Source: a virus. Taken from it: 64,000 bases of DNA. A program made the translations under genes and the position numbers. How positions within the stretch are numbered: the stretch's first letter is position 1; every line of letters starts with the position of its first letter. The notes under the pieces were generated by a model, which made no database searches, had not been told where the DNA came from, and was given only the letters and a program-made list of their open reading frames with translations. Below, piece after piece: positions 33,630 through 48,496 of the stretch. The stretch lies in the IMG/VR virus record IMGVR_UViG_3300048925_000129; one strand, given 5' to 3'.

Positions 33630-33689
33630 GTATTATTGATTTTTATTTCACAAAGATAAGAAATTATTTTGTATTGTGCAAGTATATAA

Positions 33690-33723
33690 TAAAAAATCCT
33701 ACCCAATTCATTTTAGGTAGGAT
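33690..33723 (-). terminator. terminator ending the tRNA region
   Basis: atcctacc/ggtaggat hairpin plus T6. Confidence 0.7.
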
Positions 33724-33881
33724 CATATAGTTAATTATGAATTTAAAGGGAATCAATTTCCCTGAGTTGAGATTTCATTTTAGCTCTAAATTTTTCTTTA
33801 TGGAAAGGAGCCCAAATACCTTTGTGAGGCTTACATAGTTTGCAGCCACAACCTTTCTTTCGTTTTCTTTTATTATGTCTG

Positions 33882-34340: not shown

Positions 34341-34357
34341 CTCTTATTTATTTTTAG

Positions 34358-34432
34358 TGGTCTAGGTGGGGATTGAACCCACGTCCTTCTGTTTATGAGA
34401 CAGTTGCTTCGAACCAACCGAGCTCCTAGACC
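34358..34432 (-). tRNA. tRNA-Met or Ile2 (CAT)
   Basis: Cloverleaf, loop CT-CAT-AA. Confidence 0.88.
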
Positions 34433-34468
34433 TTTTAACCAGGATTAGCTAAGGAATCTTTTCTTATG

Positions 34469-34540
34469 AACCCCCACCAGGAATCGAACCTGAATCGTCT
34501 GTTTAGAAGACAGATGCTCTATCCGTTGAGCTATGAGGGC
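34469..34540 (-). tRNA. tRNA-Arg (TCT)
   Basis: Cloverleaf, loop CT-TCT-AA. Confidence 0.9.
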
Positions 34541-34751
34541 AAGTTTCGGTTGTTATGCAAAGACAACCTGTAGTTTAGCTGGTTTAATCAAGAAAAACCA
34601 ATTACTCATCTCGGAGGTTTAAAAACTTCACTGTTTTAAAGATGGGGAGAGGTCGTGACTACCAAACCTTATTCCATTCTTACTACCTACATACCTCAGG
34701 GCAGTTAAGAGAAAGTGATTTAACGTTACACTTATACACGGCTCTGCATTG

Positions 34752-34823
34752 TCCCGATACTAGGAATCGAACCTAGATTTCAACTTTATGAGAGTTGTGT
34801 AATAGCCACTATACCATATCGGA
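34752..34823 (-). tRNA. tRNA-Met (CAT), atypical body
   Basis: Cloverleaf, loop CT-CAT-AA. Confidence 0.85.
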
Positions 34824-35014
34824 AGTTGAGGGCGTTAAGTTAATCAGACTAATACCCTCTTTTAATTTCTTGCTTCCATTTTTTAGGGAAAAGGAAGCAC
34901 CCTGCAACCAAACCTAAGTTTTTTGAACACAAAAACTCATAAAGTACCTCGTATGCCCAGTGTTATTTAACCTTACACACCTCACTCCAAGGCTGAACTA
35001 TTTCAAGGGATTTG

Positions 35015-35087
35015 TAGCTCCACCAGGACTCGAACCTGGATCTTCAGCTTATGAGACTGACGAGGTAACCTATTTCTCCATGTAGCA
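35015..35087 (-). tRNA. tRNA-Met (CAT), initiator-like
   Basis: Cloverleaf, 1:72 mismatch. Confidence 0.85.
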
Positions 35088-35093
35088 ATATTA

Positions 35094-35174
35094 GAGCAGA
35101 GTTGTGGAATCGAACCACTAGTCTAGACTACCTTACTCTTCACGACTAAGACCCTGCCTTCGGGTGACTCTGCT
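35094..35174 (-). ncRNA. tRNA-like RNA with acceptor and T arm only
   Basis: AGCAGAGT/ACTCTGCT stem, GTGGTTCGATTCCAC. Confidence 0.55.
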
Positions 35175-35185
35175 TATAAAAACTA

Positions 35186-35434
35186 CTACTCTATAAGAGC
35201 AGTAGTTGTATTGTTTTCTTTAATAATTTTTAATGACCCTTTAAACTGGAGGCTGCCTTTAGTATGACTACTGTCAGGGGTCTCCTTTGTTGTGAAGCCG
35301 ACTCTGGAATCTAGATGATCCACATAGTAAGTTTCACCTTTACACTTCACTACCCAGGCAGGAATGCTCTGGTCCTCGTTGTGTTTCTTATTGAAGTGGA
35401 ATACTATTCTGGAGCTATTACAAATTGTCTCCAT
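35186..35434 (-). CDS. hypothetical protein
   Basis: FHFNK..W.VK..G..Y.V.H. Confidence 0.65.
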   Translation of the reverse strand: METICNSSRIVFHFNKKHNEDQSIPAWVVKCKGETYYVDHLDSRVGFTTKETPDSSHTKGSLQFKGSLKIIKENNTTTALIE

Positions 35435-35684
35435 ACTTCTCTACAAGTTTAGTCACATAAGATTCAGAAATTTCCTTTCTCTTTGTTGTTTGTCTCTCCT
35501 TTCCTTTCAGAACCGAGTAAGCCTGGAAGAGATGTCTAAGCTCATACCTGTTAGTTTCTCTTTCCGAAACTGGATTTGTAGATGTTCTTTCTCCTGTAAA
35601 GGATTGTTTAATCTGAGGCTTAAGAGTTTTCTGTGCCTCTGATAATGTTTTTATTGCTTGTCTGATTGTTTCAAATTTTTTCAT
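35418..35684 (-). CDS. hypothetical protein co-transcribed with Pth2-like gene
   Basis: LRHLFQAYSVLKGK. Confidence 0.65.
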   Translation of the reverse strand: MKKFETIRQAIKTLSEAQKTLKPQIKQSFTGERTSTNPVSERETNRYELRHLFQAYSVLKGKERQTTKRKEISESYVTKLVEKYGDNL

Positions 35685-35691
35685 GATAATT

Positions 35692-36042
35692 TTAATTTAA
35701 TGTTAGATTAAGATTTTTAAATAAAGACTTGTGTTGAGATCTTGAGATTGCTTCGATGGCTACTGCCGTCATTTGGTTTCCTATGTCAGGTTCCAGGAAC
35801 TTATGATACTTGATTTCCAAGTCATCCAGTTTATGGAGTATCCTTTCAATTTTGGATTCCGAAGCTTCAAGACAACACAGGTAGTTACTACCCATCTGCC
35901 ACTGCTTAAATTCATCGTTAAACTTGACTGCAAAATCAGCCAATGCATGTGCACTTTGCACAACTTTGTAACCTGGAGTTAAATCATCTCTGGTGATGAT
36001 TGTCATAAACTCGTTACCTGTCTAAATACCTGTCTTTGTCAT
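35692..36042 (-). CDS. Pth2-like peptidyl-tRNA hydrolase, probable in-frame UAG at codon 7
   Basis: TRDDL.PG..VQSAHA, FLEPDIGNQMTAVA; upstream in-frame ATG 36042, TAG 36022-36024. Confidence 0.75.
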
Positions 36043-36061
36043 AATATAAAACTTTTGGTTG

Positions 36062-36134
36062 TTCTTTCAACGGGATTCGAACCCGTGACACACAGTTTTA
36101 GAGACTGCTGTTCTAACCACTGAACTATGAAAGA
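36062..36134 (-). tRNA. amber suppressor tRNA (CTA)
   Basis: Cloverleaf, anticodon arm GCAGT-CT-CTA-AA-ACTGT. Confidence 0.88.
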
Positions 36135-36138
36135 ATAT

Positions 36139-36203
36139 TGCTTCGTATAAGGACTCGAACCTCACCTGCTAACTGCCGTGCTCCCAATTACACCATCACG
36201 AAA
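36139..36203 (-). ncRNA. tRNA-like RNA with collapsed anticodon arm
   Basis: D arm TGGTGTAATTGGGAGCAC, T arm GAGGTTCGAGTCCTT, 14 nt between them. Confidence 0.6.
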
Positions 36204-36296
36204 AACTTATCTCTCCCACACGGCAATGCAGTTAAAATAAGATTGATATAAGTTAAGGAGGCTTGCCGACCAACCTTATTTGCCATCAATTTTTTG

Positions 36297-36368
36297 TAGT
36301 CCATAGGGGAGTCGAACCCCTCTTCTTAGATCGAAAATCTAATGTCCTAACCGATAGACGAATGGACC
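36297..36368 (-). tRNA. tRNA-Glu (TTC)
   Basis: Cloverleaf, TTAGA-TT-TTC-GA-TCTAA. Confidence 0.9.
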
Positions 36369-36374
36369 AAGTAC

Positions 36375-37194
36375 AAGCTACAGGTCTTGTTAGTTAATAT
36401 TCCACACCGAGTGCCTCAACCAAGGCTTTGGGAATCGAACCCTCTTCGTCTTTTTTCCAAATAAAAATGTTTTAAACTTTGTATTTGCTGTGTGTAGCTT
36501 TATCAAATTACCGTTTGATGTTAAAATTCCAATTTTTAGCTTTGTTTAATTTGCTGTAGGTAATTTTGTCAGATTGCATACTAAACGTGTGTTTGATTAA
36601 AATTCAAGTGTTTGTTTAATTTGCTGTTAGCAATCTTTTCAGAATAGTATGTTTGAGGATTTGAACCCCTTGAACTGTTTATGAGACAATTGTTTTAACC
36701 AAATTTTTTAGATTTGCTGTAACTATTCTTATCAAGTTTCTATTGTTTTTGGACTATTGCTCTACCAACTGAGCTACTGAAATCCTAAGACTCCAGAAGG
36801 GACTCGAACCCTTGACCCACAGTGTTACATTCCTAAATTTGCTGTTAGAAACTTTATCAAAACTCATTTTTTGTTTTATACGTTGTACTAACCACTATAC
36901 TATCTCCCAAATTTTTCTAGATTAACTTTGTTGGGAGAGGAGGAGTCGAACCTCCGTCTACGGCTCTGAATGCATAACTTTGTATTTGCTGTATGAGTTT
37001 TTATATATTCAGGTTACTTGGGGACGATAAAAGGTCCCGTTAAGTTAAGATTTAAGTCATTCTAGGACTTTCCTATACAATTTTACTTCTCACATACAGG
37101 ACCCGAAGTGTAGAGATGTCTGTGCTTTTGCATTCTACAGTTTCCGTTATTTGAATCAATTATAGTTGTGTGTTGTATTTGCTGATAGTAACCT
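36375..37194 (-). ncRNA. array of 7 Y-RNA-like (ACAGCAAA-stem) RNAs
   Basis: Units 36375-36500, 36505-36566, 36571-36636, 36641-36729, 36734-36854, 36859-37001, 37011-37194, each with own 7-9 bp terminal stem and conserved motif. Confidence 0.8.
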
Positions 37195-37206
37195 TATAAT
37201 AACACT

Positions 37207-37265
37207 GCAAAGATATGAAAACTTTTTGAGATATGCAAATCTTGCAGTGTTAAATTTATGTTAAA
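37207..37265 (-). promoter_or_regulatory. promoter for the RNA array
   Basis: TTTGCATAT..TATCTTTGC, TTTAACA x2. Confidence 0.8.
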
Positions 37266-37276
37266 GGATTTTCACC

Positions 37277-38953: not shown

Positions 38954-38982
38954 CTTATTATGATTTTTGGTTAATTTTTGAT

Positions 38983-39279
38983 TTAGTTTTTACCATTTCC
39001 CTTTTCTGGAAATTTATGAATTCTAATTGGAAGAAATCCTAATTCTTCACATAAGTTTCTTAAAACTTCTAACTTAGAATCATCTCCTTTTTCTATTTTC
39101 CCATCAAACAAAGCTTCAATTACTTCTCCATCTCCTAAGGAAATAAATCCATTTTGAATATGTCTTTCAGCTAGAAGTGAATATGCTTGAATTTTTGCCT
39201 GAAACTTTACCTGCTCTTTGTTAGCTTCTAATTGAATTCTAATTAGTTCTGCTTGTCTATAAAACTCTTGATCTGTCAT
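38983..39279 (-). CDS. hypothetical protein
   Basis: Follows promoter 39298-39357. Confidence 0.5.
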   Translation of the reverse strand: MTDQEFYRQAELIRIQLEANKEQVKFQAKIQAYSLLAERHIQNGFISLGDGEVIEALFDGKIEKGDDSKLEVLRNLCEELGFLPIRIHKFPEKGNGKN

Positions 39280-39498
39280 TTGTTTAATTATTACTTTGCA
39301 AAGATACAAAAAGTTTTCTTAATATGCAAATTTATTTTGTTAAAGTTTTGTTAAAGTTTTTCGATTATAGAGAAGACAATAAAAATTATGTTCTCAACTG
39401 GTATGTTATAAATCCATCTCATAGTATGTAAAATAAAAAATGTTGCTAATATAAGACTTCACATACTAACAACATTCAATCTACCTTCTTGTAGTTTG

Positions 39499-39570
39499 TG
39501 TGATAACGGGACTCGAACCCTGACTACCAATTTCACAGGTTGGCATGCTAACCTTTACATCATTATCACC
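39499..39570 (-). tRNA. tRNA-His (GTG)
   Basis: Cloverleaf, CT-GTG-AA, G-1 encoded. Confidence 0.85.
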
Positions 39571-39627
39571 ATATAAAGTATCTTTTATTTAAGGGGTTGA
39601 AAGATACAAAACTATCCCTAATTTTAT

Positions 39628-40020
39628 TTAGTAGTTCACTACTCTTACTGGTTTACCAAGATTTTTCATGAGGTCTATCATATTTTTTGTTCCTCTACTC
39701 TTGCCATCCCAAAAAGCTATAAGTACATCTCCTACTTCGGACATCTCTTCATTCCTAATTGGACCAGCAGCATTCCCATACATTTTCCAGTCGGCTGGCA
39801 TAGGAATAACATTGTGATTACTCTCAGCAGCATAAAGCTCTCCAAGTCCATCTGCTCCAAAGACATTAATACCATCTGATGTGGTAAAAGTCTTGGTTCC
39901 CGTGGAGCATCTTCCTGAAACTATTTCGATGTCTCTATGATTCCTAAGGAAATTATCACATTTTGTTTTAACGAGACGATAATCATTCAGATCTCTGCCT
40001 CCTGCTATTATGACTTTCAT
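39628..40020 (-). CDS. SLOG/DUF2493 (YspA-like) protein
   Basis: IIAGGR, GAD, AGPIRN.EM, AFWDGKSRGT. Confidence 0.88.
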   Translation of the reverse strand: MKVIIAGGRDLNDYRLVKTKCDNFLRNHRDIEIVSGRCSTGTKTFTTSDGINVFGADGLGELYAAESNHNVIPMPADWKMYGNAAGPIRNEEMSEVGDVLIAFWDGKSRGTKNMIDLMKNLGKPVRVVNY

Positions 40021-40442
40021 TAGGCTTCAGCAATTGCTTGCTTGATCTCATCAGCTTTATTAATACCTTTACACTCCTTGTTGATCATACCAAATAGTTT
40101 ACCTTCGTGGATGCCTGGATTATCTTCTTTAGTTTGTTTAACCAAAGACACTAATTCAGAATAGGTTAAGGCCTGAGGTAAGTACGACTCAAGAACTTTT
40201 AATTCTGATTCTTCCTTAACAGCAAGATCTATTCTTTTAGAAAGAGTGTAGGCATCAATAGATTGATTCCTTTTCTTAATTTCCCTAGAGATAAGTTTCG
40301 TAACTTCATCTTCAGTTAAATCTCTTCTTAAAGCTATTTTCTCGTTGTCTACTACACTTATTAAAAGTGACAGGGTTGTTTTTGCTACTATATCTTTTGC
40401 CTTTAAAGCTTTTACGTAGTCTTGTCTGATCTTTGATTCCAT
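40020..40442 (-). CDS. GatB/YqeY domain protein
   Basis: ALKAKD, EIKKR..SI..Y..R.DL..KE..E...L..YLP. Confidence 0.88.
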   Translation of the reverse strand: MESKIRQDYVKALKAKDIVAKTTLSLLISVVDNEKIALRRDLTEDEVTKLISREIKKRNQSIDAYTLSKRIDLAVKEESELKVLESYLPQALTYSELVSLVKQTKEDNPGIHEGKLFGMINKECKGINKADEIKQAIAEA

Positions 40443-40469
40443 TTTACTTTTGTTTTAATTATTGATTAG

Positions 40470-40540
40470 TGCAGGTAGGGAGAATCGAACTCCCGACTAA
40501 ACATTGGAAGTGTCCCGTGATACCACTTCACCACACCTGC
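40470..40540 (-). tRNA. tRNA-Gly (TCC), reconstituted copy
   Basis: Cloverleaf, CT-TCC-AA. Confidence 0.85.
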
Positions 40541-40958
40541 CTATTCTTTCCTGATAATGTAAGTCCCTATGACAGTTGGAACATAAAACCTCACATTTCT
40601 CTATTTCTTTTAATGCTCTAGATTTAGAACCACTCTTAAACAGAGCTCCAACTTCAGTATCCTTCTCGTCTGGATTAATATGGTGAAAATCTAAGACCCA
40701 CCATCTATCCTCTGGACATCTATTACATTTTAAATTTTTCTTTATTTCGAAAAATTCTTCCATAGAAGTTTGTCTATAAGCTTTAGATTTAGAAATATAT
40801 TTAGCTTTGTTAGCTTCATAATGTTTCTTTCTATATTCTTTCTGACATTCTCTACATTGCCACTGTAGAATTGTTTTTGTTTTCAATTTTTTAGTAGCAA
40901 AAAACTCTTCTGTCTCTGGTAATTCTTTTTTACAAGAACCACATATCTTCGTACACAT
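40497..40958 (-). mobile_element. HNH homing endonuclease
   Basis: CGSC, CREC, LDFHH, EIEKCEVLCSNCH. Confidence 0.88.
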
Positions 40959-41024
40959 ATTTATTAATTTATACAAAGATACAAAAAAGGTATCGAACTT
41001 CCAAACACATAAAATTAATTATTA

Positions 41025-41065
41025 GGCTTGGAAGGCTAGAGTATTAACCACTATACGATACCTGC
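41025..41065 (-). pseudogene. orphaned 5' half of tRNA-Gly (TCC)
   Basis: GCAGGTA-TCGTATAGTGGTTAATAC-TCTAGC-CTTCCAA-GC. Confidence 0.8.
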
Positions 41066-41160
41066 AATTATAATAGACCATCATACTCTCACTAATGTGA
41101 TTCGTGCACCTGATATACCTTGGGTATATAAGTAGATAGTTTTAGGGGCAACTATTATTG

Positions 41161-41234
41161 TCTCCAGTATAGGATTTGAACCTATGACAACTTCCTTATC
41201 AGAGAAGTGCTCTACCAGACTGAGCTAACTGGAG
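41161..41234 (-). tRNA. tRNA-Ile (GAT)
   Basis: Cloverleaf, CT-GAT-AA. Confidence 0.9.
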
Positions 41235-41259
41235 TTAAACCAGGTTTCCCTGGTATGTT

Positions 41260-41496
41260 TTATTTTTTATAGTGAATGTAAGATTTCACTCCTTTCATGG
41301 CTGCATCTTCTACAAGCCTCAAAGCTAAAGTTTTCAAACTCAAAATTTCAGAAGCTTCGTCTGGATTTAAATCTGCTGTCACATTATCATTAATGTAGTC
41401 GAAAAGCTCAATAGCTCTTTGTTTAATTCCATCAATTACTCCTTCACCTGAAGGGTTGAAATCACCAATTCTTTTTTGTCCTAAAGTTTTTTCCAT
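41260..41496 (-). CDS. Acb2/Tad1-like hairpin protein (candidate signal sponge)
   Basis: TLG..R..FNPSG..I..IK....L...LA...EDAAM.GVK. Confidence 0.5.
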   Translation of the reverse strand: MEKTLGQKRIGDFNPSGEGVIDGIKQRAIELFDYINDNVTADLNPDEASEILSLKTLALRLVEDAAMKGVKSYIHYKK

Positions 41497-42257
41497 TATA
41501 TATCTTTTCTTGTTACAATAAAATCTTCTATTGAGTTATCCTCTTCTAAAATTAGCTTACCAAATCCTGGAGCTATAATAAAATGTGTCCTATCATTTTG
41601 GTCTTCAGCAGGAATAATATCTGAAAAACCTGATTTTTTTGAAATTTCCATTTGGTCTTTAGTAAGTAGATAGATAAGTTCCATTAACTTCAAGTGGTTA
41701 GTTTTAACTTCCATTACTCTTTCTGTCCAAGGAATATGTCTTCCAGTATAATACACAAAGTGAATATGATTCCTTAATGTACCTCTTATATCAGTTTCAT
41801 CTGGATAAGGTTCTGTATTAAATCCATGTGAATGCCACATGTATTCACCTTTATCATTGGTTTCTTTATACTCAACATATAATTTACCCGTTTCACCAGC
41901 ATAGTACCTTTTCAAAACTTCTTCATGTTGTTTAGAAACATCAAATTGTACAGTATCAAATAAGTTTCCAGTAGAAGAATATTCTCCTAATACAAAACCA
42001 ATTCTTATCCATTTATCTGTACTTTGGATATCTTCTTTTGCTAAATAGACATCAGGATCAGTTGTTACTAACACAACTGCTTTAGCATCTTCAGTGACTA
42101 TAAATTGAACACCGTACATGGCATCATCTGTATAAACAGTATTTGGATCACTGAATATTCCTTTGAATATCTCTATTGGAATTCTAGATCCATCAATACC
42201 TAAGTAAATACTTGGGTCTCTTCCTTCTTTTTCTTTGTAAAATCTTTCTCGTATCAT
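41496..42257 (-). CDS. hypothetical protein
   Basis: 253 aa ORF. Confidence 0.65.
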   Translation of the reverse strand: MIRERFYKEKEGRDPSIYLGIDGSRIPIEIFKGIFSDPNTVYTDDAMYGVQFIVTEDAKAVVLVTTDPDVYLAKEDIQSTDKWIRIGFVLGEYSSTGNLFDTVQFDVSKQHEEVLKRYYAGETGKLYVEYKETNDKGEYMWHSHGFNTEPYPDETDIRGTLRNHIHFVYYTGRHIPWTERVMEVKTNHLKLMELIYLLTKDQMEISKKSGFSDIIPAEDQNDRTHFIIAPGFGKLILEEDNSIEDFIVTRKDI

Positions 42258-42463
42258 TTGTTAAAAATTTCATCTGAAAATAAATCAAGAATCCTATCTG
42301 GTTCTCCCCAATCGTGACCTCCATATTTGTGCACTTTAAACTCTTCAAAAGAGGCTATATTATAACCCTCTTGACCATGAATTACTTTTAGGTAAATAAA
42401 TCTTAATCTATACCACCAGTAAACCCTGAATTTATCATACTCATCTAATTCCTGAAATTTCAT
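42254..42463 (-). CDS. hypothetical protein
   Basis: ORF after promoter at about 42468. Confidence 0.5.
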   Translation of the reverse strand: MKFQELDEYDKFRVYWWYRLRFIYLKVIHGQEGYNIASFEEFKVHKYGGHDWGEPDRILDLFSDEIFNK

Positions 42464-42521
42464 TTTACAAATTTAAGAAACTTTTTTGACATGTGCAAGT
42501 TTTTAACAAACTTTAACATTG

Positions 42522-42593
42522 TAGACCTACTAGGATTCGAACCTAGATACCCTGAGTCAAAGTCAGGTGTACTAACCGTTGTACGATAGGTCT
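42522..42593 (-). tRNA. tRNA-Gln (TTG)
   Basis: Cloverleaf. Confidence 0.92.
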
Positions 42594-42596
42594 GTT

Positions 42597-42670
42597 TGGA
42601 GCCCAGAACAGGATTCGAACCTGTGTACCTAGTTTTGCAGACTAGTGTCTAACCACTCGACCACCTGGGC
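42597..42670 (-). tRNA. tRNA-Cys (GCA)
   Basis: Cloverleaf, CCA encoded. Confidence 0.92.
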
Positions 42671-42676
42671 AGCTTG

Positions 42677-42748
42677 AGCCTCTATCAGGAATCGAACCCG
42701 AATCTCAAGATTACAAATCATGTATAATAGCCGTTATACTACAGAGGC
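42677..42748 (-). tRNA. tRNA-Thr (TGT)
   Basis: Cloverleaf. Confidence 0.9.
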
Positions 42749-42751
42749 AAA

Positions 42752-42793
42752 TAAAAAATCCCTTGCAAAGTCGGTTGAGGATTCACAAGGGAT
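42752..42793 (-). terminator. attenuator-type terminator before tRNA-Thr
   Basis: ATCCCTTG..CAAGGGAT plus T6. Confidence 0.8.
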
Positions 42794-42825
42794 AGAAATT
42801 TATAAAAAATAAATTTGTGTATTGT

Positions 42826-42915
42826 CTATTCATAAATGACATCAGACAAAATCATCCCTGTTGAGTGCCCCTGGCAGCCAATAGTTATCTCGATATGTTG
42901 TCTAGTTGTTGTCAT
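42826..42915 (-). CDS. leader peptide B, MTTTRQHIEITIGCQGHSTGMILSDVIYE
   Basis: Lies between promoter (42935-43000) and terminator; residues 1-17 match downstream tRNAs. Confidence 0.75.
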   Translation of the reverse strand: MTTTRQHIEITIGCQGHSTGMILSDVIYE

Positions 42916-42934
42916 TGTTTAAATTTTTACTTCT

Positions 42935-43000
42935 GCAAATATACAAAATGTTTTTGACATATGCAAATTTCTAAAAGAAATTATTAGTTAAAGTTTTGTT
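42935..43000 (-). promoter_or_regulatory. promoter of tRNA operon B
   Basis: TTTGCATAT..TATATTTGC. Confidence 0.8.
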
Positions 43001-43220
43001 AAAAATAATAATACCAGTATTCATCGTGGAATAGCTGCATTTCTTGTTTTAAATTAATCTGCTTTTGGTGCTTATACATCCTATTGCCCTCACAAATGTT
43101 GCATCCACCATTATGTTCACAGAATTTAGATGGTCTTGTTCTGCTTCCATCTCTTACTGTTTTTAAGTGGTTAACACCCATCCATCTATGCTGAGATGGT
43201 TTTCTATAAGTTCTACTCAT
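42999..43220 (-). CDS. small basic Cys/His protein
   Basis: MSRTYRK, CEHNGGCNICEGNR. Confidence 0.6.
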   Translation of the reverse strand: MSRTYRKPSQHRWMGVNHLKTVRDGSRTRPSKFCEHNGGCNICEGNRMYKHQKQINLKQEMQLFHDEYWYYYF

Positions 43221-43236
43221 AAAAATAATTTAAGTG

Positions 43237-43320
43237 AGGAAGACAGAGAGCACGATTCCCAGACCCTGAGGTCCCATTTGTTTAGCAAACAAAGTCTATA
43301 CCCCGATAGATTTAACTTCC
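43237..43320 (-). tRNA. tRNA-Ser (GCT)
   Basis: Long variable arm, TT-GCT-AA, atypical T loop. Confidence 0.75.
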
Positions 43321-43328
43321 ATAATATG

Positions 43329-43409
43329 AGGAGGAAGTGGGACTCGAACTCTCAGACCCAGAGGGTCACAGTTTTCAAGACTGCTGCAATACCATTCTGC
43401 CAATCCTCC
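43329..43409 (-). tRNA. tRNA-Ser (TGA)
   Basis: Long variable arm, CT-TGA-AA. Confidence 0.88.
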
Positions 43410-43415
43410 GAATTG

Positions 43416-43772
43416 TTATTTTACAAAGATAGCCGTCTTACCAATAACTTCGTCTATATTTAGGTAGACAATTCTATCTTCTTTTTGTATATAGATGGCT
43501 AAAATGTCAAACTCATCAACTTCTATTTTATAGATAGTATTAGTATTTTTGTTTGATCTAATTCTTCTTAGCTCTATGTTATATTTGCCCAAACTATTTG
43601 GATCTTTGATAGTTGATTTAACAGATACTCTTTTAGACTCTCCATCTTTATAGATGAACAAATCAAAAGGTGCTTTACCACTCACTTGATTAAAAATGTG
43701 ATAACCTTTACTAGCTAAATCAGCCATTACTTTAATCTCACCTAATTGAGAATACATTGTTTTATTATCCAT
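43416..43772 (-). mobile_element. PD-(D/E)XK homing endonuclease (I-Ssp6803I-like)
   Basis: GEIKVMADL..GY.I, PFDL, RVSVKS, FDILAIY. Confidence 0.8.
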
Positions 43773-43799
43773 AGCTCTTCATCCAGCCAGATTCCCTCC
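43773..43799 (-). pseudogene. orphaned 5' fragment of tRNA-Ser
   Basis: GGAGGGA pairs fully (one G-U) with TTCCTCC of the downstream tRNA-Ser. Confidence 0.6.
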
Positions 43800-43856
43800 A
43801 ATTAAAAGCCCCAGAAATTGTGCATGCAAGCAAAGGCATCTGGGGGATTGATATTT

Positions 43857-44369
43857 TTATTTTAGCAAGTACTGCTCCCAATCTTTAGGAATTGTACCTA
43901 GATGTTTTATAAACATCAAGTAATGTGGTCTTTTAGGATTTGGATGTTCCTTACCCCACTCTTCTATTGTTAAGTCATTTTTTTCCGAGTTACACGGTTT
44001 ACATGCAGTAACTAAGTTGTCCCAAGTGTCTTTTCCACCTTTCGATTTAGGAATAACGTGGTCGATAGTCATTGCTCTTATTTCGTCTTCTCCACAATAC
44101 ACACAAGTGTAGTTATCTCTTTTGAAAACATTGTCCCTGTTACAAGGAACTTTGTGGATATCCAGGTTAATGAACCTTGGAACCCTGATAACTGATGGTC
44201 TGAAGATCTCTAAATCTGGATTAACCAAACCAAACTTCTCTGGGTGTTCATGCAGGATGTCTGCATTACCCTTAAGAGAAACTACATAAGCTCTTTCAGA
44301 TGTCACAATTTGTCTGGGTAAGTACTGTGAATCTAACACCAAGCACTTACGAAAATCTACTTTTTTCAT
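43857..44369 (-). CDS. HNH endonuclease (McrA-like)
   Basis: RDNYTCVYCG, TIDHVIPKSKGG..TWDNLV.AC..CN; start moved to 44369. Confidence 0.9.
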   Translation of the reverse strand: MKKVDFRKCLVLDSQYLPRQIVTSERAYVVSLKGNADILHEHPEKFGLVNPDLEIFRPSVIRVPRFINLDIHKVPCNRDNVFKRDNYTCVYCGEDEIRAMTIDHVIPKSKGGKDTWDNLVTACKPCNSEKNDLTIEEWGKEHPNPKRPHYLMFIKHLGTIPKDWEQYLLK

Positions 44370-44389
44370 TGTTACACTTTTTTGATTAG

Positions 44390-44470
44390 TACTGATAGTA
44401 GGACTCGAACCTACACCCCTTTCGGGAACAGTTTCTAAGACTGCCGTGTCTACCATTCCACCATACCAGC
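44390..44470 (-). tRNA. tRNA-Leu (TAG)
   Basis: Cloverleaf, long variable arm. Confidence 0.92.
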
Positions 44471-44586
44471 ATTTCCCCTAATTGCTTTTTGATACCAACC
44501 ACTGTCAGGCTATGAACCTTCATAAGTCAAGGGGATCGAACCCTTAGTTCATCAATATCCTACTACTTCAATTTGGATAGGATTTG

Positions 44587-44666
44587 TACTCCCACTGGGA
44601 CTCGAACCCAGACCCCGAAGGATAAGATTTTAAGTCTTACGTGTCTACCAATTCCACCATGAGAGC
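44587..44666 (-). tRNA. tRNA-Leu (TAA)
   Basis: Cloverleaf, long variable arm. Confidence 0.92.
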
Positions 44667-44672
44667 ATTTTG

Positions 44673-44745
44673 TGGACCGACAGGGGATCGAACCCTGGTT
44701 TAAAGTTTGCAAAACTTTGGTTTTAGCCAATTAAACTACCAGCCC
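44673..44745 (-). tRNA. tRNA-Ala (TGC)
   Basis: Cloverleaf with G3-U70. Confidence 0.9.
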
Positions 44746-44747
44746 AA

Positions 44748-45023
44748 TTATTTATTATCTTTGTTTCTTCCAATGTGATACCCATCACAGAAGACACATT
44801 TGTAAGTGCTAAAGTGCACTCCTTTCTTTTTCCCCATACTAATTGCTGACTTCAAAGCAGTCTCCTTGGTATTATACATAACCTTAGGCTTACCTGTATC
44901 TGCCCTCTGATGAGAATTTTTATGGAACATTCCCCAGGCATTTCTGGTAATAAAGAAATTTTTAATGAATCTCTTGAGTGGAAGCTGATCCTTCAATGCT
45001 ATTACTATGTTCTTTAGTTTCAT
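44748..45023 (-). CDS. hypothetical Zn-binding protein
   Basis: YKCVFCDGYHIG. Confidence 0.65.
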   Translation of the reverse strand: MKLKNIVIALKDQLPLKRFIKNFFITRNAWGMFHKNSHQRADTGKPKVMYNTKETALKSAISMGKKKGVHFSTYKCVFCDGYHIGRNKDNK

Positions 45024-45231
45024 ACTCTCCTTTTATAATTCTTACTATGTCCTTTGGTGATACTACTGTGCATCGTTTCATTACATCTTGAATTCTACCT
45101 TTAGGTATATCGTAATGATTTTTATGAAACCAGCAAATGTTGATCCCAAGGTCTCTAGCCATTTTATGCAGATTCTGTTTAGAATATGGCAAGCAGACTA
45201 GATGTCTTTTGTTATCACAAATATATTTCAT
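44962..45231 (-). CDS. DUF4031-like protein
   Basis: HL..LH.MA..LGI..WF..HYDI. Confidence 0.65.
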   Translation of the reverse strand: MKYICDNKRHLVCLPYSKQNLHKMARDLGINICWFHKNHYDIPKGRIQDVMKRCTVVSPKDIVRIIKGEYETKEHSNSIEGSASTQEIH

Positions 45232-45233
45232 TG

Positions 45234-45304
45234 TACCTCGTAAAGGAATCGAACCTTTTCCACTTGTATGTAAGACAAGGAAGCTACCGTTACATCAACG
45301 AGGC
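45234..45304 (-). tRNA. tRNA-Val (TAC)
   Basis: Cloverleaf. Confidence 0.88.
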
Positions 45305-45365
45305 ATACAACTATGTGAGTCCTAACTAAACTTATCTCACTTTTACTGGAACCCGTAGGTAGTTT

Positions 45366-45563
45366 TTAAATGTTGTTATTCCAGGTTCTATATCCTGTGG
45401 AAGGGTCAGTATCGACTTTCTTTCCAACAAATGTTATCTCCCAGAATTCTTCACCCAACTCTAGTAGTTGAACAAAATTTCCTTTCTTGGCATGTTTAGA
45501 ATCAATCCAGCATTGTGTGAATTCTTCTTTGCCTTTTTTCTTAAATGTGCATTGTGCCCACAT
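45366..45563 (-). CDS. hypothetical protein
   Basis: ORF between tRNAs. Confidence 0.55.
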   Translation of the reverse strand: MWAQCTFKKKGKEEFTQCWIDSKHAKKGNFVQLLELGEEFWEITFVGKKVDTDPSTGYRTWNNNI

Positions 45564-45580
45564 AACTTTAATTTTTACTG

Positions 45581-45654
45581 TGCCCCCAGAAGGACTCGAA
45601 CCTTCAGTCTACATCTTAAAAGGATGTTGCTTTAACCAATTCAGCTATAGGAGC
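45581..45654 (-). tRNA. tRNA-Lys (TTT)
   Basis: Cloverleaf. Confidence 0.9.
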
Positions 45655-45766
45655 TTTTCTTTCGATTTAGAGCAGAAATCGAACCCGAAACATATACTGC
45701 CTAGATTTCTTAATCCCCGAAAACGACCTTGCCTCAAGGCTTACAGCTTTAACTGATGGATTTTTG

Positions 45767-45838
45767 TCGGGTAGACAGGACTCGAACCTGCATCCTCTTG
45801 CTTCCAATGCAAGTAATCGACCATTGATATACTACCCG
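45767..45838 (-). tRNA. tRNA-Pro (TGG)
   Basis: Cloverleaf. Confidence 0.9.
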
Positions 45839-45845
45839 TAATATG

Positions 45846-45927
45846 TGAGGCATGTAGGATTCGAACCTACTCAGCAATTGCAACTGTTTTACAGACAGTC
45901 TCAGCTCTCCAACTCTGACGATACCCC
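45846..45927 (-). tRNA. tRNA-Tyr (GTA)
   Basis: Cloverleaf, long variable arm. Confidence 0.85.
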
Positions 45928-45935
45928 GTTTAAAT

Positions 45936-46013
45936 TGGTGGGTCCACTGGGAATCGAACCCAGTCCTACAGTTTTTCAGACTATCGTGCAGACCTTAATT
46001 ACACCTTAGACCC
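45936..46013 (-). tRNA. tRNA-Phe (GAA)
   Basis: Cloverleaf, CCA encoded. Confidence 0.88.
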
Positions 46014-46065
46014 AATCGTACAGTTACGTTTCCAAATAGGAAAGAGGCTTGACTGTACATCATTG

Positions 46066-46138
46066 AGGGAGAAGTGGGATTCGAACCCACACAAATCGAC
46101 TTAACAGGTCGGTGCTCTACCATTACAGCTATTCTCCC
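46066..46138 (-). tRNA. tRNA-Asn (GTT)
   Basis: Cloverleaf. Confidence 0.9.
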
Positions 46139-46151
46139 GAATAAAAATTTG

Positions 46152-46223
46152 CACGTCCCACAGGATTCGAACCCGTACCAAAAGTTTTGGAGACTCCTAT
46201 GCTACCATTAACACCAGAGACGT
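46152..46223 (-). tRNA. tRNA-Trp (CCA)
   Basis: Cloverleaf. Confidence 0.88.
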
Positions 46224-46230
46224 ATGTTTG

Positions 46231-46306
46231 CCGTGATAGAGGGATTCGAACCCTCGTTTTTGAAGAGTGACAGTCTAAATCCCCATCCAATGGAGCATAT
46301 ACCACG
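46231..46306 (-). tRNA. tRNA-Asp (GTC), atypical D arm
   Basis: CT-GTC-AC loop, T arm intact. Confidence 0.75.
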
Positions 46307-46314
46307 AGTTATAT

Positions 46315-46352
46315 AAAAATAAAAATCCCTACGAATTTTACTAAGTAGGGAT
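46315..46352 (-). terminator. attenuator-type terminator before tRNA-Asp
   Basis: ATCCCTAC..GTAGGGAT plus T tract. Confidence 0.8.
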
Positions 46353-46385
46353 ATTAATCAAAAAAACTAAAACTATGAACCAAAA

Positions 46386-46502
46386 TCATGTTTGTGTGCT
46401 TTTACTTAATCCTACTATTGTAGAGCTATTATCCCATAACTTATCTGCCCCCAGTACACTAGGGTTAAAGGCAAACGAATAAAAGTTATAAGAGTTTTTC
46501 AT
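46386..46502 (-). CDS. leader peptide A, MKNSYNFYSFAFNPSVLGADKLWDNSSTIVGLSKSTQT
   Basis: Lies between promoter (46520-46578) and terminator; residues 2-26 match downstream tRNAs. Confidence 0.75.
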   Translation of the reverse strand: MKNSYNFYSFAFNPSVLGADKLWDNSSTIVGLSKSTQT

Positions 46503-46519
46503 TGTATATTTTTTACTTT

Positions 46520-46578
46520 GCAAAGATATGAAATTAATTTCACATATGCAAATTTAATTGGTTAAATTTTTGTTAAAT
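46520..46578 (-). promoter_or_regulatory. promoter of tRNA operon A
   Basis: TTTGCATAT..TATCTTTGC, TTTAAC x2. Confidence 0.8.
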
Positions 46579-46637
46579 TTTTAGTAATGCAAAGATAGGA
46601 AATAAAATCCAAAAAAGCAAATACATAAAACTTTTTA

Positions 46638-46847
46638 TTAAAAGTATTCTTCATCAATGAAGAAATCCTCTTCATCTTCCTCCTCATCAATAAGGTGTAG
46701 TAGAGACTCATCTAAGTTTGAGTAAATACTACTGAACAAGGTTTTATCCTTATCCCAAATTCCAGTAGCTTCTGGTAAAACTGATTCCAGTTCACCTGAG
46801 TCCAGGAATGTATCATACAGATCTCTAAGTTTTGGGTTGTTCTCCAT
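46638..46847 (-). CDS. small acidic protein
   Basis: ORF. Confidence 0.6.
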   Translation of the reverse strand: MENNPKLRDLYDTFLDSGELESVLPEATGIWDKDKTLFSSIYSNLDESLLHLIDEEEDEEDFFIDEEYF

Positions 46848-47088
46848 AACCTTTCTTTTTTAAATCATTAATTATAAATAGATACTCATCTTCCATTTTA
46901 GTAGAAGGTTCCTCATCTAATCTATAATTTATCACTTCTTTCCCACTTCCATTATCAAGGACTGTTTTGACTAAGAATTTAGGGGGTTTGGTAGCAGTTT
47001 TTACGTGCAATACACTTTTAACCCCCTTCATTTTTCTTATTACATTTAGCCAATGATTATGGAAAGCCATATCATATAAGCCTTTCAT
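46825..47088 (-). CDS. hypothetical protein
   Basis: ORF. Confidence 0.55.
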   Translation of the reverse strand: MKGLYDMAFHNHWLNVIRKMKGVKSVLHVKTATKPPKFLVKTVLDNGSGKEVINYRLDEEPSTKMEDEYLFIINDLKKKGYGEQPKT

Positions 47089-47099
47089 ACTTCAAATTT

Positions 47100-47912
47100 T
47101 TAGAATGGACTATCATCATCTTCTGCTACTGCATTGGCTGCAAAAGGATTTTCACCTGTTGTAGTTGCTGTAACTGGAGTTTGTGTAGCCACTGGTGTTG
47201 TAGTTGGTTGAGTTTCTTCAGGAGCAGCTTCTGCCCATTCTTTGTAAAACTCAGATTGGTATACATTACCAGCTTTGAAATCTTCGTATCTCTTTAACTC
47301 ATACATTAGAACTTTAGACAGGAAAGTATCCTGAGCTTTGTAGTCCATTGTTTTTTGGCTTGGATTGATTGGGTCCTGTTCAACTATGAACATAGGAACG
47401 TTTCCTTTCTCTCCGAACTTTAATGAGAATTTGATTGGTTGATCTTTGTCTTGTCCTTCCTCTTGCTTATATCTGAAGTAAAGAATCTTGTCAACATATC
47501 CTCTTTGATTTTTATCCCTGTTTGAAGAGATGATAATCGACTTAGAGTAATCTAAGCTAGGAAGGATAGCAATTAGTTTCTTAACTTCATCATTTAATCC
47601 ACCTTTTATACTTTTAAGTGGTAGCTGAATTACATCAACTCCCGAAGGATCTTCATCAGATTGTACTGACAATTCTACGTAGCTAACTTTTCCTTTTGGG
47701 AATGTTTTCTCAGTAATTGCAAGGTATGAAACCTTACCGTAGTCTGTACTCTTATAAGGCTTTTGATAAGTCTTTCTTTCGTTTGCAGTACCTGCATCTA
47801 GAACGATCTCATTAAATCCTTCTTTAGGCTCTTTTGAGCTCTCATATAGTTCCCCTTTAGAGTTGATTCTTAGAAATGTAAAATTTCTCCCTGTTCCGAA
47901 TTCTTTTGCCAT
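47100..47912 (-). CDS. putative single-stranded DNA-binding protein
   Basis: Flexible linker and acidic DDDSPF tail, near recA. Confidence 0.6.
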   Translation of the reverse strand: MAKEFGTGRNFTFLRINSKGELYESSKEPKEGFNEIVLDAGTANERKTYQKPYKSTDYGKVSYLAITEKTFPKGKVSYVELSVQSDEDPSGVDVIQLPLKSIKGGLNDEVKKLIAILPSLDYSKSIIISSNRDKNQRGYVDKILYFRYKQEEGQDKDQPIKFSLKFGEKGNVPMFIVEQDPINPSQKTMDYKAQDTFLSKVLMYELKRYEDFKAGNVYQSEFYKEWAEAAPEETQPTTTPVATQTPVTATTTGENPFAANAVAEDDDSPF

Positions 47913-47998
47913 GTTGTAAACTTTTTATTAATTAGTTATTTATTAGATTGCAAATGTACAACTTTATTTTGACATATGCAAATACATAAAAGTTAATT

Positions 47999-48496
47999 TT
48001 ATGTTAAAAATTTTTGTATTTCTTCTGTAGTTAAAAATATGTCTTCGTCATTCTCGTAAGCCTCCCACTCTTCTTTAGTTAAAATACTTGGTAATCTAGC
48101 TTCAACTGCTTCCACTAAAGGGTACTTTACTTTATAAAGTAACTTATCTTCTGTGAAATCCAATTTAATTTTACCTGTTCCAGGTCTTACGGATACTCTT
48201 CTTGATGTCGTGTGTACCATTCCTGTAGTTCCAGGAACAAGATACTTTGGGCATTTAACAGTAACAAATAAGTCGAACGCTGCACTAAAGATACTGCCAC
48301 ATGCAACTAACTGAAATTGTTCTGGGTCATATGATTCGAAAAGCTCTCTAAGCATTTCTGCAATTATACATTTACCTCCTGGGGAATCAAGCCATACTTC
48401 AAACTTCATCCCTTCTGGTAACTCGTTCTGAAACTGAAGAAATGTTTCAAACACATCCTCGTTCAATTCATCATTCCAATAAAATCTCCTTATCAT
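47999..48496 (-). CDS. ClpP-like protease
   Basis: LDSPGG, FSAA, MVH, DIFLT. Confidence 0.72.
   Translation of the reverse strand: MIRRFYWNDELNEDVFETFLQFQNELPEGMKFEVWLDSPGGKCIIAEMLRELFESYDPEQFQLVACGSIFSAAFDLFVTVKCPKYLVPGTTGMVHTTSRRVSVRPGTGKIKLDFTEDKLLYKVKYPLVEAVEARLPSILTKEEWEAYENDEDIFLTTEEIQKFLT

Follow-up and report, generated by a model that had tools for sequence, protein, structure and literature searches.

Two short open reading frames (ORFs) in a phage tRNA array, designated leaders A and B, each sample the amino acids of one of two tRNA blocks, and judging from sequence and RNA modeling, each unit is probably a ribosome-mediated leader-peptide transcription attenuator ahead of tRNA genes. 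The DNA analyzed, hereafter the window, is a 64-kb stretch of the phage genome. The layout claimed in the original prediction, with a promoter, a short ORF, an intrinsic terminator, and then the first tRNA, is present twice in the window and is kept in three related phages. Upon re-extraction and re-translation, the coordinates and peptides of both leaders were as described there. Table 1 lists the features.

TABLE 1 Features of the leader units and the tRNA array in the window
Feature	Coordinates	Strand	Basis or remark
Upstream promoter box (TTTG..TAnnTTTG type), in tandem with leader A promoter	46590..46621	-	Motif search
Leader A promoter, phage box TTGCATATG.. plus TAnnTTTG	46521..46552	-	Motif search
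Leader A ORF, 38 codons, stop TGA	46386..46502	-	ORF translation
Putative sensing part of leader A, codons 2-26	46425..46499	-	24/25 residues within the block A set of 11 amino acids
Candidate antiterminator strand of leader A, codons 29-32	46409..46417	-	Pairs with terminator A 5' arm
Terminator A, 8-bp stem (46352-46345 with 46332-46325), 12-nt loop, T-rich run	46313..46352	-	Folding
tRNA-Asp(GTC), first gene of block A, a few nt past the T run	46231..46306	-	Rfam, ARAGORN orthologue
Rest of block A, with interspersed ORFs: Trp, Asn, Phe, Tyr, Pro, Lys, Val, Ala, Leu(TAA), Leu(TAG), Ser(TGA), Ser(GCT)-like	43238..46223	-	ARAGORN, Rfam, motif search
Leader B promoter, perfect phage box	42936..42967	-	Motif search
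Leader B ORF, 29 codons, stop TAG in 3/3 phages	42826..42915	-	ORF translation
Putative sensing part of leader B, codons 1-17	42865..42915	-	No residue outside the 9-amino-acid set of the other tRNAs
Candidate antiterminator strand of leader B, codons 18-22	42852..42864	-	Pairs with terminator B 5' arm
Terminator B, stem 42793-42786 with 42765-42758, 20-nt loop, T run	42749..42793	-	Folding
tRNA-Thr, Cys, Gln; reachable solely by terminator B read-through	42521..42748	-	ARAGORN, Rfam
Internal promoter box right after tRNA-Gln	42469..42500	-	1 mismatch to phage box
tRNA-Ile(GAT), Gly, His and ORFs (YqeY-like, SLOG-like)	39498..41234	-	ARAGORN, motif search
Internal promoter box within the Ile/Gly/His segment	40974..41005	-	Motif search
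Terminator-like hairpin and T run after tRNA-His	39431..39477	-	Conserved in 3/3 phages
Distal tRNAs: Glu, suppressor (CTA), CAT x3, Arg(TCT)	34357..36368	-	ARAGORN
Strong terminator at array end	33695..33724	-	Terminator scan

The array encodes two complementary tRNA sets

ARAGORN called 22 tRNAs in the array, and Rfam added a Phe-GAA tRNA (46013-45939, 54.5 bits) and a weak match to an Asp-GTC tRNA (46300-36, 26.2 bits, below the 29-bit cut-off). Despite its subthreshold score, we take the tRNA-Asp gene (46306-46231) to be real on comparative grounds: its orthologue in the related phage G001 is called by ARAGORN, and compensatory changes between phages occur in its acceptor and anticodon stems. 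A further class II tRNA-Ser(GCT)-like gene with an odd T-loop (43322-43238) received no call from either ARAGORN or Rfam; covariation between phages is seen in its acceptor, D, and variable stems. Block A thus comprises 13 tRNAs (Asp, Trp, Asn, Phe, Tyr, Pro, Lys, Val, Ala, two Leu, and two Ser), and one of its interspersed ORFs encodes an HNH endonuclease. Block B begins with tRNAs for Thr, Cys, Gln, Ile, Gly, His, and Glu and continues with an amber suppressor (CTA), three CAT tRNAs, one of them ileX-like, and Arg(TCT). The tRNA annotation bears out the claim that the amino acid sets of the two blocks are complementary and total 20. The phage genome (~160 kb) also encodes an RNA ligase, a polynucleotide kinase, and a nucleotidyltransferase, a combination that makes up the classical tRNA-repair kit, as well as a PTH2-like hydrolase, YqeY, and a Ro60-like protein with Y-RNA-like units.

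Leader composition matches tRNA content

Match probabilities were computed against the background composition of long ORFs in the 64-kb window. With the exception of one Gly, every residue from 2 to 26 of leader A belongs to the block A set of 11 (P = 6.7e-5 for 24 or more of 25 in the set; P = 6e-6 with all 11 also present). In leader B, none of residues 1 to 17 falls outside the 9 amino acids served by the other tRNAs (16 consecutive in-set residues, P = 3.2e-7; with all 8 non-Met members also present, P = 2.2e-8). Both matches had been noted in the original prediction and were confirmed. Among 1960 candidate ORFs of the window, the two leaders are extreme outliers: leader B has the longest set B run (16, next 9), and when up to one mismatch is allowed, the longest set A run belongs to leader A, at 26 residues that include all 11 amino acids (next 20). 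The match extends to codons. Codons 2 to 26 of leader A represent both Leu and both Ser codon families, with CTG and TTA for the two Leu tRNAs and TCT/TCG and AGT/AGC for the two Ser tRNAs, while AGA and ATA in leader B match Arg(TCT) and the ileX-like CAT tRNA. The exception in leader A, Gly18, is conserved in three phages although tRNA-Gly sits in block B, and Asn3 is replaced by Thr in the closest relative. Met is represented in set B by the start codon alone, which leader A shares, and elongator Met is unsampled.

The lineage comparison covers the three phages found in the collections, including the window, two of which are nearly identical, so the covariation has thin support. Compared to G001, whose UvsX is 72% identical, the matched parts carry 11 synonymous changes and 7 replacements that stay in set, with their amino acid sets preserved. 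In leader A, codons 2 to 25 underwent 9 synonymous and 2 replacement changes, both in set, versus 1 synonymous and 8 replacement changes in the tail. In leader B, 5 of 5 replacements in codons 2 to 17 were in set (0.36 expected each, P about 0.006), versus 1 of 6 in the tail; every set member was retained, with Arg disappearing from codon 5 and reappearing at codon 10. This pattern shows that selection on the identity of amino acids or codon families acts on the matched part and not on the tail, and the synonymous excess in leader A argues for translation.

The original prediction proposed that leader composition should track tRNA content at homologous loci, and the leaders of LR745206.1, an unrelated 635-kb phage, indeed follow their own clusters. 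LR745206.1 carries four tRNA clusters, each with the promoter/short ORF/terminator/tRNA layout, with the amino acid sets HFWKRS, EYIGMA, NRLVITM, and PDQ. In this order, the leaders matched their own clusters with P values of 1.5e-4, 0.02, <5e-5, and <5e-5. Cross-cluster comparisons were not significant with one exception, and apart from it the matrix of own-block versus other-block matches is diagonal in both the window and LR745206.1. The design is seen in two unrelated phage lineages and may be widespread. Since it recurs in unrelated giant phages, leaders could predict tRNA content, including noncanonical tRNAs missed by gene finders: a probable tRNA-Cys in LR745206.1 and the Ser(GCT) gene described above, both missed by ARAGORN and Rfam, were pointed to by their leaders. 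Leader sequences may thus be of practical use in tRNA annotation.

Promoters delimit the genes under proposed leader control

The phage promoter box had 19 matches in the window versus 4.65 expected. Both leader promoters are of the Bacteroidota type, and the ORFs begin 18 to 20 nt past the TAnnTTTG box. The leader A promoter and the box upstream of it are conserved in both relatives, G001 and G002; the leader B promoter is identical in G002 and nearly identical in G001. A motif search of the window found no promoter motif within block A, leaving read-through of terminator A as the sole route to its 13 tRNAs.

Block B differs. The caveat of the original prediction that internal promoters may drive distal block B tRNAs holds, with boxes at 42500, 41005, 39330, and 37239, and the hairpin after tRNA-His closes the transcription unit begun by leader B. 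Because of the internal promoters and this conserved terminator, leader B would exclusively gate just Thr, Cys, and Gln. The Glu, Arg, Met, and Ile2 tRNAs belong to later transcription units, the distal tRNAs lying behind the promoters at 39330 and 37239 plus further hairpins. Leader B nevertheless includes Glu, Arg, and ATA-Ile codons, whose genes lie past the internal promoters and the post-His terminator. The proposal that attenuation gates the matching tRNAs is partly supported, by anatomy, codon match, conservation, and in silico pairing, and for leader B alone it extends only to Thr, Cys, and Gln.

Leader tails are predicted to pair with the terminators

Terminators A and B are conserved hairpins of -9.9 and -13.9 kcal/mol, respectively, followed by T runs, and were missed by a simple terminator scan because of their loops of 12 and 20 nt. 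They end 2 to 15 nt before the first tRNA, and the T run of terminator B ends 1 nt before tRNA-Thr. In G001, a change lengthens the stem of terminator A, and the stem of terminator B carries a compensatory G-C to A-U change.

When the RNA is cut before the terminator 3' arm, the 5' arm is predicted to pair with the ORF tail. The tail-to-arm duplex was -8.4 kcal/mol (P = 0.037) for leader A and -10.8 kcal/mol (P = 0.034) for leader B. In all six independent leaders, it was stronger than for shuffled tails (P = 0.003 to 0.067; Fisher 1.6e-6), with the restriction to the tail having been chosen, for the two leaders of the window, after their folds were seen; the four LR745206.1 leaders alone gave a Fisher value of about 1.5e-5, worked out by hand. 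When the entire leader was tested for complementarity, the result did not reach significance (P = 0.06 to 0.25). The GTAGG core of the leader A strand is retained in G001 despite a different tail peptide, and one compensatory change, U-A to G-C between the window and G001, is specific to the leader B antiterminator helix. The predicted sequestration of the 5' arm lies 0 to 3 codons past the matched part in 8 of 8 leaders, with the pairing segment of the tail 2 to 4 codons past it, and the tail measures 11 to 13 codons in all six independent leaders.

A model for attenuation and its alternatives

In the model we propose, transcription would start at the phage promoter, and the short ORF would be translated cotranscriptionally. 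A ribosome still in the sensing part (codons 2 to 26 of A, 1 to 17 of B) would leave the following codons exposed to pair with the emerging terminator 5' arm; no terminator would form, and RNA polymerase would enter the tRNA genes. If all sampled codons were decoded fast, the ribosome would cover the antiterminator strand before the terminator was complete, the hairpin would form, and transcription would stop a few nucleotides before the first tRNA. With at least one codon per tRNA species of the block, slow reading of any single sampled codon would turn the block on, and ample supply would turn it off. Leader translation, stalling, the direction of the switch, and the cause of tRNA depletion are inferred. 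Candidate causes include host defense nucleases, host shut-off, codon-usage mismatch, and simple feedback from phage-encoded tRNAs. Naming host tRNA depletion or anticodon nucleases as the trigger would be a guess, and autoregulation of tRNA dosage fits equally well. Only tentatively do we suggest that the leaders serve as the sensors in a tRNA emergency program of the phage, which would supply replacement tRNAs when any of ~22 species is lost. That host anticodon nucleases or host shut-off by the phage itself, for example, might cause the loss, with the repair and quality-control kit alongside, is a similarly speculative reading.

The same elements could instead allow leader translation to act by a route other than intrinsic termination, which we consider unlikely. 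Ribosome occupancy might control Rho access, RNase cleavage, or tRNA precursor stability, or a ribosome reading through the leader B TAG, given the suppressor tRNA in block B, might melt the terminator directly. Such routes are favored by predicted folding, in which the full-length RNA at equilibrium adopts the terminator fold at every ribosome position; an attenuation switch must therefore be kinetic, as in trpL. Moreover, a tRNA lies directly upstream of a leader in G001 and LR745206.1, so that precursor processing occurs beside it. TAG read-through is consistent with the stop codon shared by all three phages and the CTA suppressor tRNA downstream, with no TAG recoding seen in the window, but the other five leaders stop at TGA or TAA. 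A hairpin and T run right before the first tRNA is a standard intrinsic terminator, and these routes give no role to the tail-to-5'-arm complementarity or to its place after the matched codons.

A quite unlikely alternative is that the hairpins only set the level of tRNA transcription, as processing stems or as constitutive terminators with some leakage, and that the leaders are translated but nonregulatory, their codon content being selected for another tRNA-related reason, e.g., to adapt a strongly expressed early message to the tRNAs of the phage. Terminator-like hairpins do occur within the array at sites without a leader, so hairpin read-through must occur regardless, and the antiterminator helices are short (6 to 9 bp). 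Left unexplained, however, are the sampling by each leader of all tRNA species of its own block with avoidance of others, the end of the matched part just ahead of the terminator-pairing strand, and the conservation of set membership alone. Finally, although the prefix lengths were picked after looking, leader A has one out-of-set residue, and Met is trivial, it is highly improbable that the ORFs are functional micropeptides or untranslated and the match a post hoc coincidence, given a joint chance of <1e-10 with prefix choice and all window ORFs allowed for, the recurrence in four leaders of an unrelated phage with other sets, the in-set shuffling of leader B residues between relatives, which speaks against a sequence-specific peptide, and the synonymous excess in leader A, which speaks against an untranslated ORF.

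Comparison with known systems

Like phages T5 and T4 and the mycobacteriophages, whose tRNA arrays replace depleted or cleaved host tRNAs, this is a large phage with a near-complete tRNA set. To our knowledge, studies of those arrays concern tRNA function rather than a codon-matched transcription sensor, and little is known of the control of phage tRNA genes. Our literature search found no published codon-matched leader sensor controlling tRNA gene transcription, in agreement with the view in the original prediction that attenuation of phage tRNA arrays is undescribed. If true, attenuation would link tRNA supply, including the action of tRNA-targeting host defenses, directly to phage gene expression.

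T-box riboswitches likewise sense tRNA status and switch a terminator/antiterminator upstream of translation-related genes, but they bind one uncharged tRNA via a specifier codon and the T-box sequence, free of translation. Unlike T-boxes, the leaders here are organized as reading frames with start and stop codons and show a pattern of synonymous substitution, and an Rfam search of positions 33000-48000 (E up to 1) gave no match to a T-box or other family in the leaders. The Escherichia coli pheST attenuator, with its pheM leader, controls a component of the translation machinery by the supply of charged tRNA-Phe; its target is a synthetase, it senses one amino acid, and it is on a bacterial chromosome, whereas the leaders here precede tRNA genes in a phage.

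The E. coli trpL, hisL, pheL, leuL, thrL, and ilvGMEDA attenuators likewise comprise a promoter, a short ORF with diagnostic codons, and a terminator before the first gene. They use alternative antiterminator and terminator pairings, for which candidate counterparts are predicted here, and ribosome stalling for want of charged cognate tRNA leads to read-through, as proposed here. As far as we know, attenuation has been a textbook mechanism solely for amino acid operons, and all described ribosome-mediated leader-peptide attenuators regulate amino acid biosynthesis or synthetase genes; the genes regulated here would be tRNAs rather than biosynthetic enzymes, in a phage with Bacteroidota-type promoters. 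Most phage leader amino acids have one to four scattered codons, in contrast to the runs in amino acid operon leaders. In ribosome-free RNA, the antiterminator was predicted at 0.48 to 0.65 for the two leaders of the window, and an untranslated phage leader may give read-through, versus super-attenuation in amino acid operon leaders. The thrL and ilvGMEDA leaders are multivalent for two or three amino acids, compared to 9 to 11 for each leader here and 13 tRNA species in A. If our reading is true, these would be the most multivalent attenuators known and the first that regulate tRNA genes.

Composition of the leaders matches the tRNA genes downstream

Two short ORFs of the window, leader A and leader B, each precede a block of tRNA genes. 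The original prediction had described these ORFs and their amino acid compositions, and our analysis recovered both as described. To catalog the tRNA array, we used ARAGORN, which called 22 array tRNAs; Rfam added tRNA-Phe(GAA) and a weak tRNA-Asp(GTC). By sequence comparison, the latter is a real gene, as its orthologue in G001, a related phage genome, was called by ARAGORN and compensatory changes occur in two stems. A class II tRNA-Ser(GCT)-like gene with an unusual T-loop and a long variable arm immediately follows tRNA-Ser(TGA). It was recognized by neither ARAGORN nor Rfam, and RNAalifold did not recover its cloverleaf, which is a manual reading of alignment A3; comparison of the window with G001 shows covariation in the acceptor stem, the D stem, and the variable arm. 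Leader A's AGT and AGC codons are accounted for by this gene. Block A thus contains 13 tRNAs for 11 amino acids, and the remaining tRNAs are Thr, Cys, Gln, Ile, Gly, His, Glu, an amber suppressor, three CAT tRNAs, and Arg(TCT). One CAT tRNA closely resembles E. coli ileX and probably reads ATA.

In codons 2 to 26 of leader A, 24 of 25 residues belong to the block A set and 11/11 members are represented; because codons of both Leu and both Ser families occur, all 13 block A tRNA species are sampled. In codons 1 to 17 of leader B, every residue falls within the complementary set, with all members represented, Arg encoded as AGA, and ATA included. With the window's long ORFs as the amino acid background, the chance probability was 6.7e-5 for leader A (6e-6 if full coverage is required) and 3.2e-7 for leader B (2.2e-8 with coverage). 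Among 1960 start-to-stop candidates of at least 20 codons in the window, leaders A and B were the strongest outliers, each for its own set, and both sit immediately upstream of their matching blocks. The joint probability is far below 1e-8, allowing for about 30 prefix lengths and all ORFs. Since the sets follow no simple codon-table pattern, base composition does not explain the match. The composition observation is solid.

Features of the window
Feature	Position	Strand
tRNA array	46306 to 34357	-
Leader A (38 codons)	46502-46386	-
Terminator A	46352-46313	
Block A	46306 to 43238	-
tRNA-Ser(GCT)-like gene	43322-43238	-
Leader B (29 codons)	42915-42826	-
Leader B stop codon	42826-42828	
Terminator B	42793-42749	
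Promoter box after tRNA-Gln	42500-42469	
Further promoter boxes	41005, 39330, 37239	
YqeY-like protein	40020-40442	-
Hairpin and T run after tRNA-His	39477-39438	
558-aa ORF	within 36380-38953	-
YrlA match	36841-36730	
Amber suppressor tRNA (CTA)	36061-36134	-
Weak PTH2-like match	35692-36006	-
tRNA-Sec-like match	35095-35174	-
tRNA sharing an anticodon arm with G001	35087-35014	
RNA ligase	15618-16922	-
tRNA-Ile(GAT)-like gene	14384-14467	-
Nucleotidyltransferase	5496-6638	-
Polynucleotide kinase	2455-3381	-

Leaders of an unrelated phage match their own clusters

LR745206.1, an uncultured 635 kb phage in INPHARED, has only one short protein-coding match to the window. It yields 61 tRNA hits in four main clusters. 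In front of each of these clusters are a TAnnTTTG box, an ORF of 28 to 38 codons, and a hairpin plus T run. A lack of composition match at other loci had been named as refuting the original prediction; the LR745206.1 leaders do match their own clusters, indicating that leader composition tracks tRNA content across a quite different partition. Cross-cluster matches were nonsignificant except for leader 2 against set 3 (P = 0.009).

Composition of the LR745206.1 leaders
Leader	Own set	Best segment	P
1	HFWKRS	11/12	1.5e-4
2	EYIGMA	9/11	0.02
3	NRLVITM	23/24	<5e-5
4	PDQ	8/8	<5e-5

The sole out-of-set residue of leader 3 is Cys. Relaxed ARAGORN alone reports an 84-nt tRNA with an oversized D region in cluster 3 (L127, 2056-2139); its loop can tentatively be read as GCA (ARAGORN: Thr-AGT), which would supply this Cys. 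A tRNA-Met (L126, 1271-1343) lies just upstream of the leader 2 promoter. Moreover, in three of the four leaders (L125 to L128), the first 6 to 12 codons, which precede the set-matched part, are rich in Thr, Asn, Ile, Lys, and Val. These codons are A-rich, and their amino acids are also those of cluster 3; the opening stretch may help translation start in the absence of a Shine-Dalgarno sequence or reflect a hierarchy between clusters.

In the cultured Caulobacter phage phiCbK (L130, NC_019405, 46800-52800), the layout is present but composition matches only in part, and phiCbK was rejected as a full cultured example. Each of three tRNA groups there has an annotated rho-independent terminator immediately in front of it. 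Upstream of Phe-Val-Ile-Ile-Val-Gln-Gln-Gly is a 32-codon ORF with a high content of Gln, Phe, Val, and Ile (and Arg), and gp335 is upstream of the Pro-Lys-Leu-Ser group. phiCbK could serve as an experimental model.

Amino acid content of the leaders is conserved among relatives

The window, part of a large tailed phage genome, is AT-rich (34% GC), and its products include a portal protein, a large terminase, and a UvsX-like recombinase. Two complete IMG/VR genomes are related to it: G002 (160 kb, with terminal repeats), whose SSB-like protein and UvsX are 86% and 96% identical to those of the window, and G001 (157 kb), whose UvsX is 72% identical. No close relative was found in INPHARED, and a search of IMG/VR with exact and back-translated leader patterns matched the contig of locus L001 only. 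A metagenome scan with UvsX gave 80 loci at 50-55% identity, none with a gene-adjacent tRNA array, and was uninformative.

The leaders of G002 are 94-96% identical over the whole region, too close to inform, with one out-of-set change (Asn3 to Thr). Compared to G001, codons 2 to 25 of leader A carry 9 synonymous changes at about 14 synonymous sites and 2 replacements at about 55 sites, both in-set, while the tail (12-13 codons) carries 1 synonymous and 8 replacement changes. In codons 2 to 17 of leader B, 5/5 replacements are in-set (0.36 expected for each), as opposed to 1/6 in its tail; the loss of Arg at codon 5 is offset by a new Arg at codon 10, and all members are still represented. In-set changes in the first part and drift in the tail indicate selection on the amino acid or codon-family content of the first part. 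In leader B, selection acts on content rather than residue order. Such a pattern is predicted for a decoding sensor and not for a sequence-specific peptide.

A predicted switch between terminator and antiterminator

Both leader ORFs start 18-20 nt downstream of a TAnnTTTG box, a Bacteroides promoter consensus (e.g., PMC4747536). The extended motif TTTG..TAnnTTTG has 19 matches in the window versus 4.65 expected, and the window promoters additionally carry a phage-specific box beginning TTGCATATGTC. At 32-33 nt past each leader's stop codon lies a hairpin with an 8-bp GC-rich stem and a 12- or 20-nt loop, followed by a T run that ends 2-15 nt upstream of the first tRNA. No promoter motif was found within block A, and the gap between terminator and tRNA is too short for a promoter; read-through of terminator A is therefore the only route by which block A can be transcribed, and this terminator has to be either conditional or leaky.

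When the full leader was folded at equilibrium with the ribosome footprint masked, the terminator was predicted at about 0.95 at every position, with no thermodynamic switch. Classical attenuators likewise form the terminator at equilibrium in the complete RNA. For RNA ending just short of the 3' arm, folding predicted that the 5' arm pairs within the ORF tail, with codons 29-32 of leader A and 18-22 of leader B. The predicted partners are 46417-46409 with 46352-46345 for leader A and 42859-42853 with 42793-42787 for leader B. In a duplex test against the whole leader, the terminator 5' arm performed no better than shuffles (P = 0.06-0.25). Restricted to the tail, the test gave P values of 0.037 and 0.034 for the window leaders and 0.016, 0.003, 0.004, and 0.067 for the four LR745206.1 leaders, which had played no part in framing it; the Fisher combination was 1.6e-6 for all six and, by hand, about 1.5e-5 for the LR745206.1 four. 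Furthermore, one pair of the predicted leader B antiterminator helix is U-A in the window and G-C in G001, a compensation specific to the antiterminator because the changed arm base is unpaired in the G001 terminator.

We modeled a ribosome covering 15 nt upstream and 8 nt downstream of the first A-site base. Predicted 5'-arm sequestration was high with the ribosome in the matched part and dropped 0-3 codons past its end in 8/8 leaders examined. The end of the matched part was set by amino acids only, and the drop by folding only. The agreement of these two positions and the constancy of the tail at 11-13 codons are the strongest structural arguments. Leader A has a classical 1:2 helix formed by codons 4-7 and 21-25. 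The helix is invariant, lacks covariation, and leaves out the best antiterminator strand.

Leader B probably governs only part of the remaining array

The original prediction had leader B gating the tRNAs downstream of it, with the caveat that internal promoters could drive distal ones independently. Leader B is the sole input for Thr, Cys, and Gln only, given the internal promoter boxes and the hairpin with T run after tRNA-His, which is kept in 3/3 phages. Leader B can add to Ile, Gly, and His transcription; it can reach Glu, the suppressor, the CAT tRNAs, and Arg only by read-through of several hairpins. Nonetheless, it samples Glu, Arg, and ATA-Ile, as it does in G001; either later terminators leak or this sampling is a relic of an older, more compact array. 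The present array is interrupted by an HNH endonuclease and other inserted ORFs.

A search for a third leader after the 41005, 39330, and 37239 promoters found none; ordinary ORFs or Y-RNA-like units follow. A 558-aa ORF with a Pfam match to DUF7788 only looks Ro60/vWA-like in sequence. After it, downstream of the 37239 promoter, are about seven units, in each of which a CAGCAAAT motif occurs together with T-arm fragments like those of tRNAs. One of these units has a subthreshold YrlA (Y RNA-like) match (39 bits; cutoff, 69).

The amber suppressor tRNA is followed by the PTH2-like ORF. TAG recoding was rejected as its purpose, as no window ORF lengthens sensibly with TAG read as Gln. The leader B stop is TAG in 3/3 phages, and the frame beyond it is open across terminator B until a TAG within tRNA-Thr. 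In G001, a CAT tRNA (L004, 7750-7821) separates the leader B promoter from the leader ORF; this tRNA shares its anticodon arm with a window tRNA that has no orthologue at the corresponding place in G001. Immediately before the first CAT tRNA of the window is a weak tRNA-Sec-like match (26.9 bits). Far from the array, an 84-nt "tRNA-Ile(GAT)" may carry an intron, given its longer G001 counterpart, a 108-nt Rfam match.

Relation to known attenuators

The window carries a tRNA repair and maintenance kit comprising RNA ligase, polynucleotide kinase, nucleotidyltransferase, a YqeY-like protein, and the PTH2-like match, which is in keeping with a phage that expects tRNA damage. The leaders passed every computational test able to refute their being attenuators, and on balance we favor this reading, with some reserve, as it rests on short modeled helices. 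Their specific purpose may be to sense attack on host tRNAs. A full-text literature search for tRNA genes, in phages or elsewhere, controlled by a leader peptide or by attenuation found no report. Ribosome-mediated attenuation is a known kind of mechanism; what would be new here is tRNA genes as its target and the breadth of the sampling.
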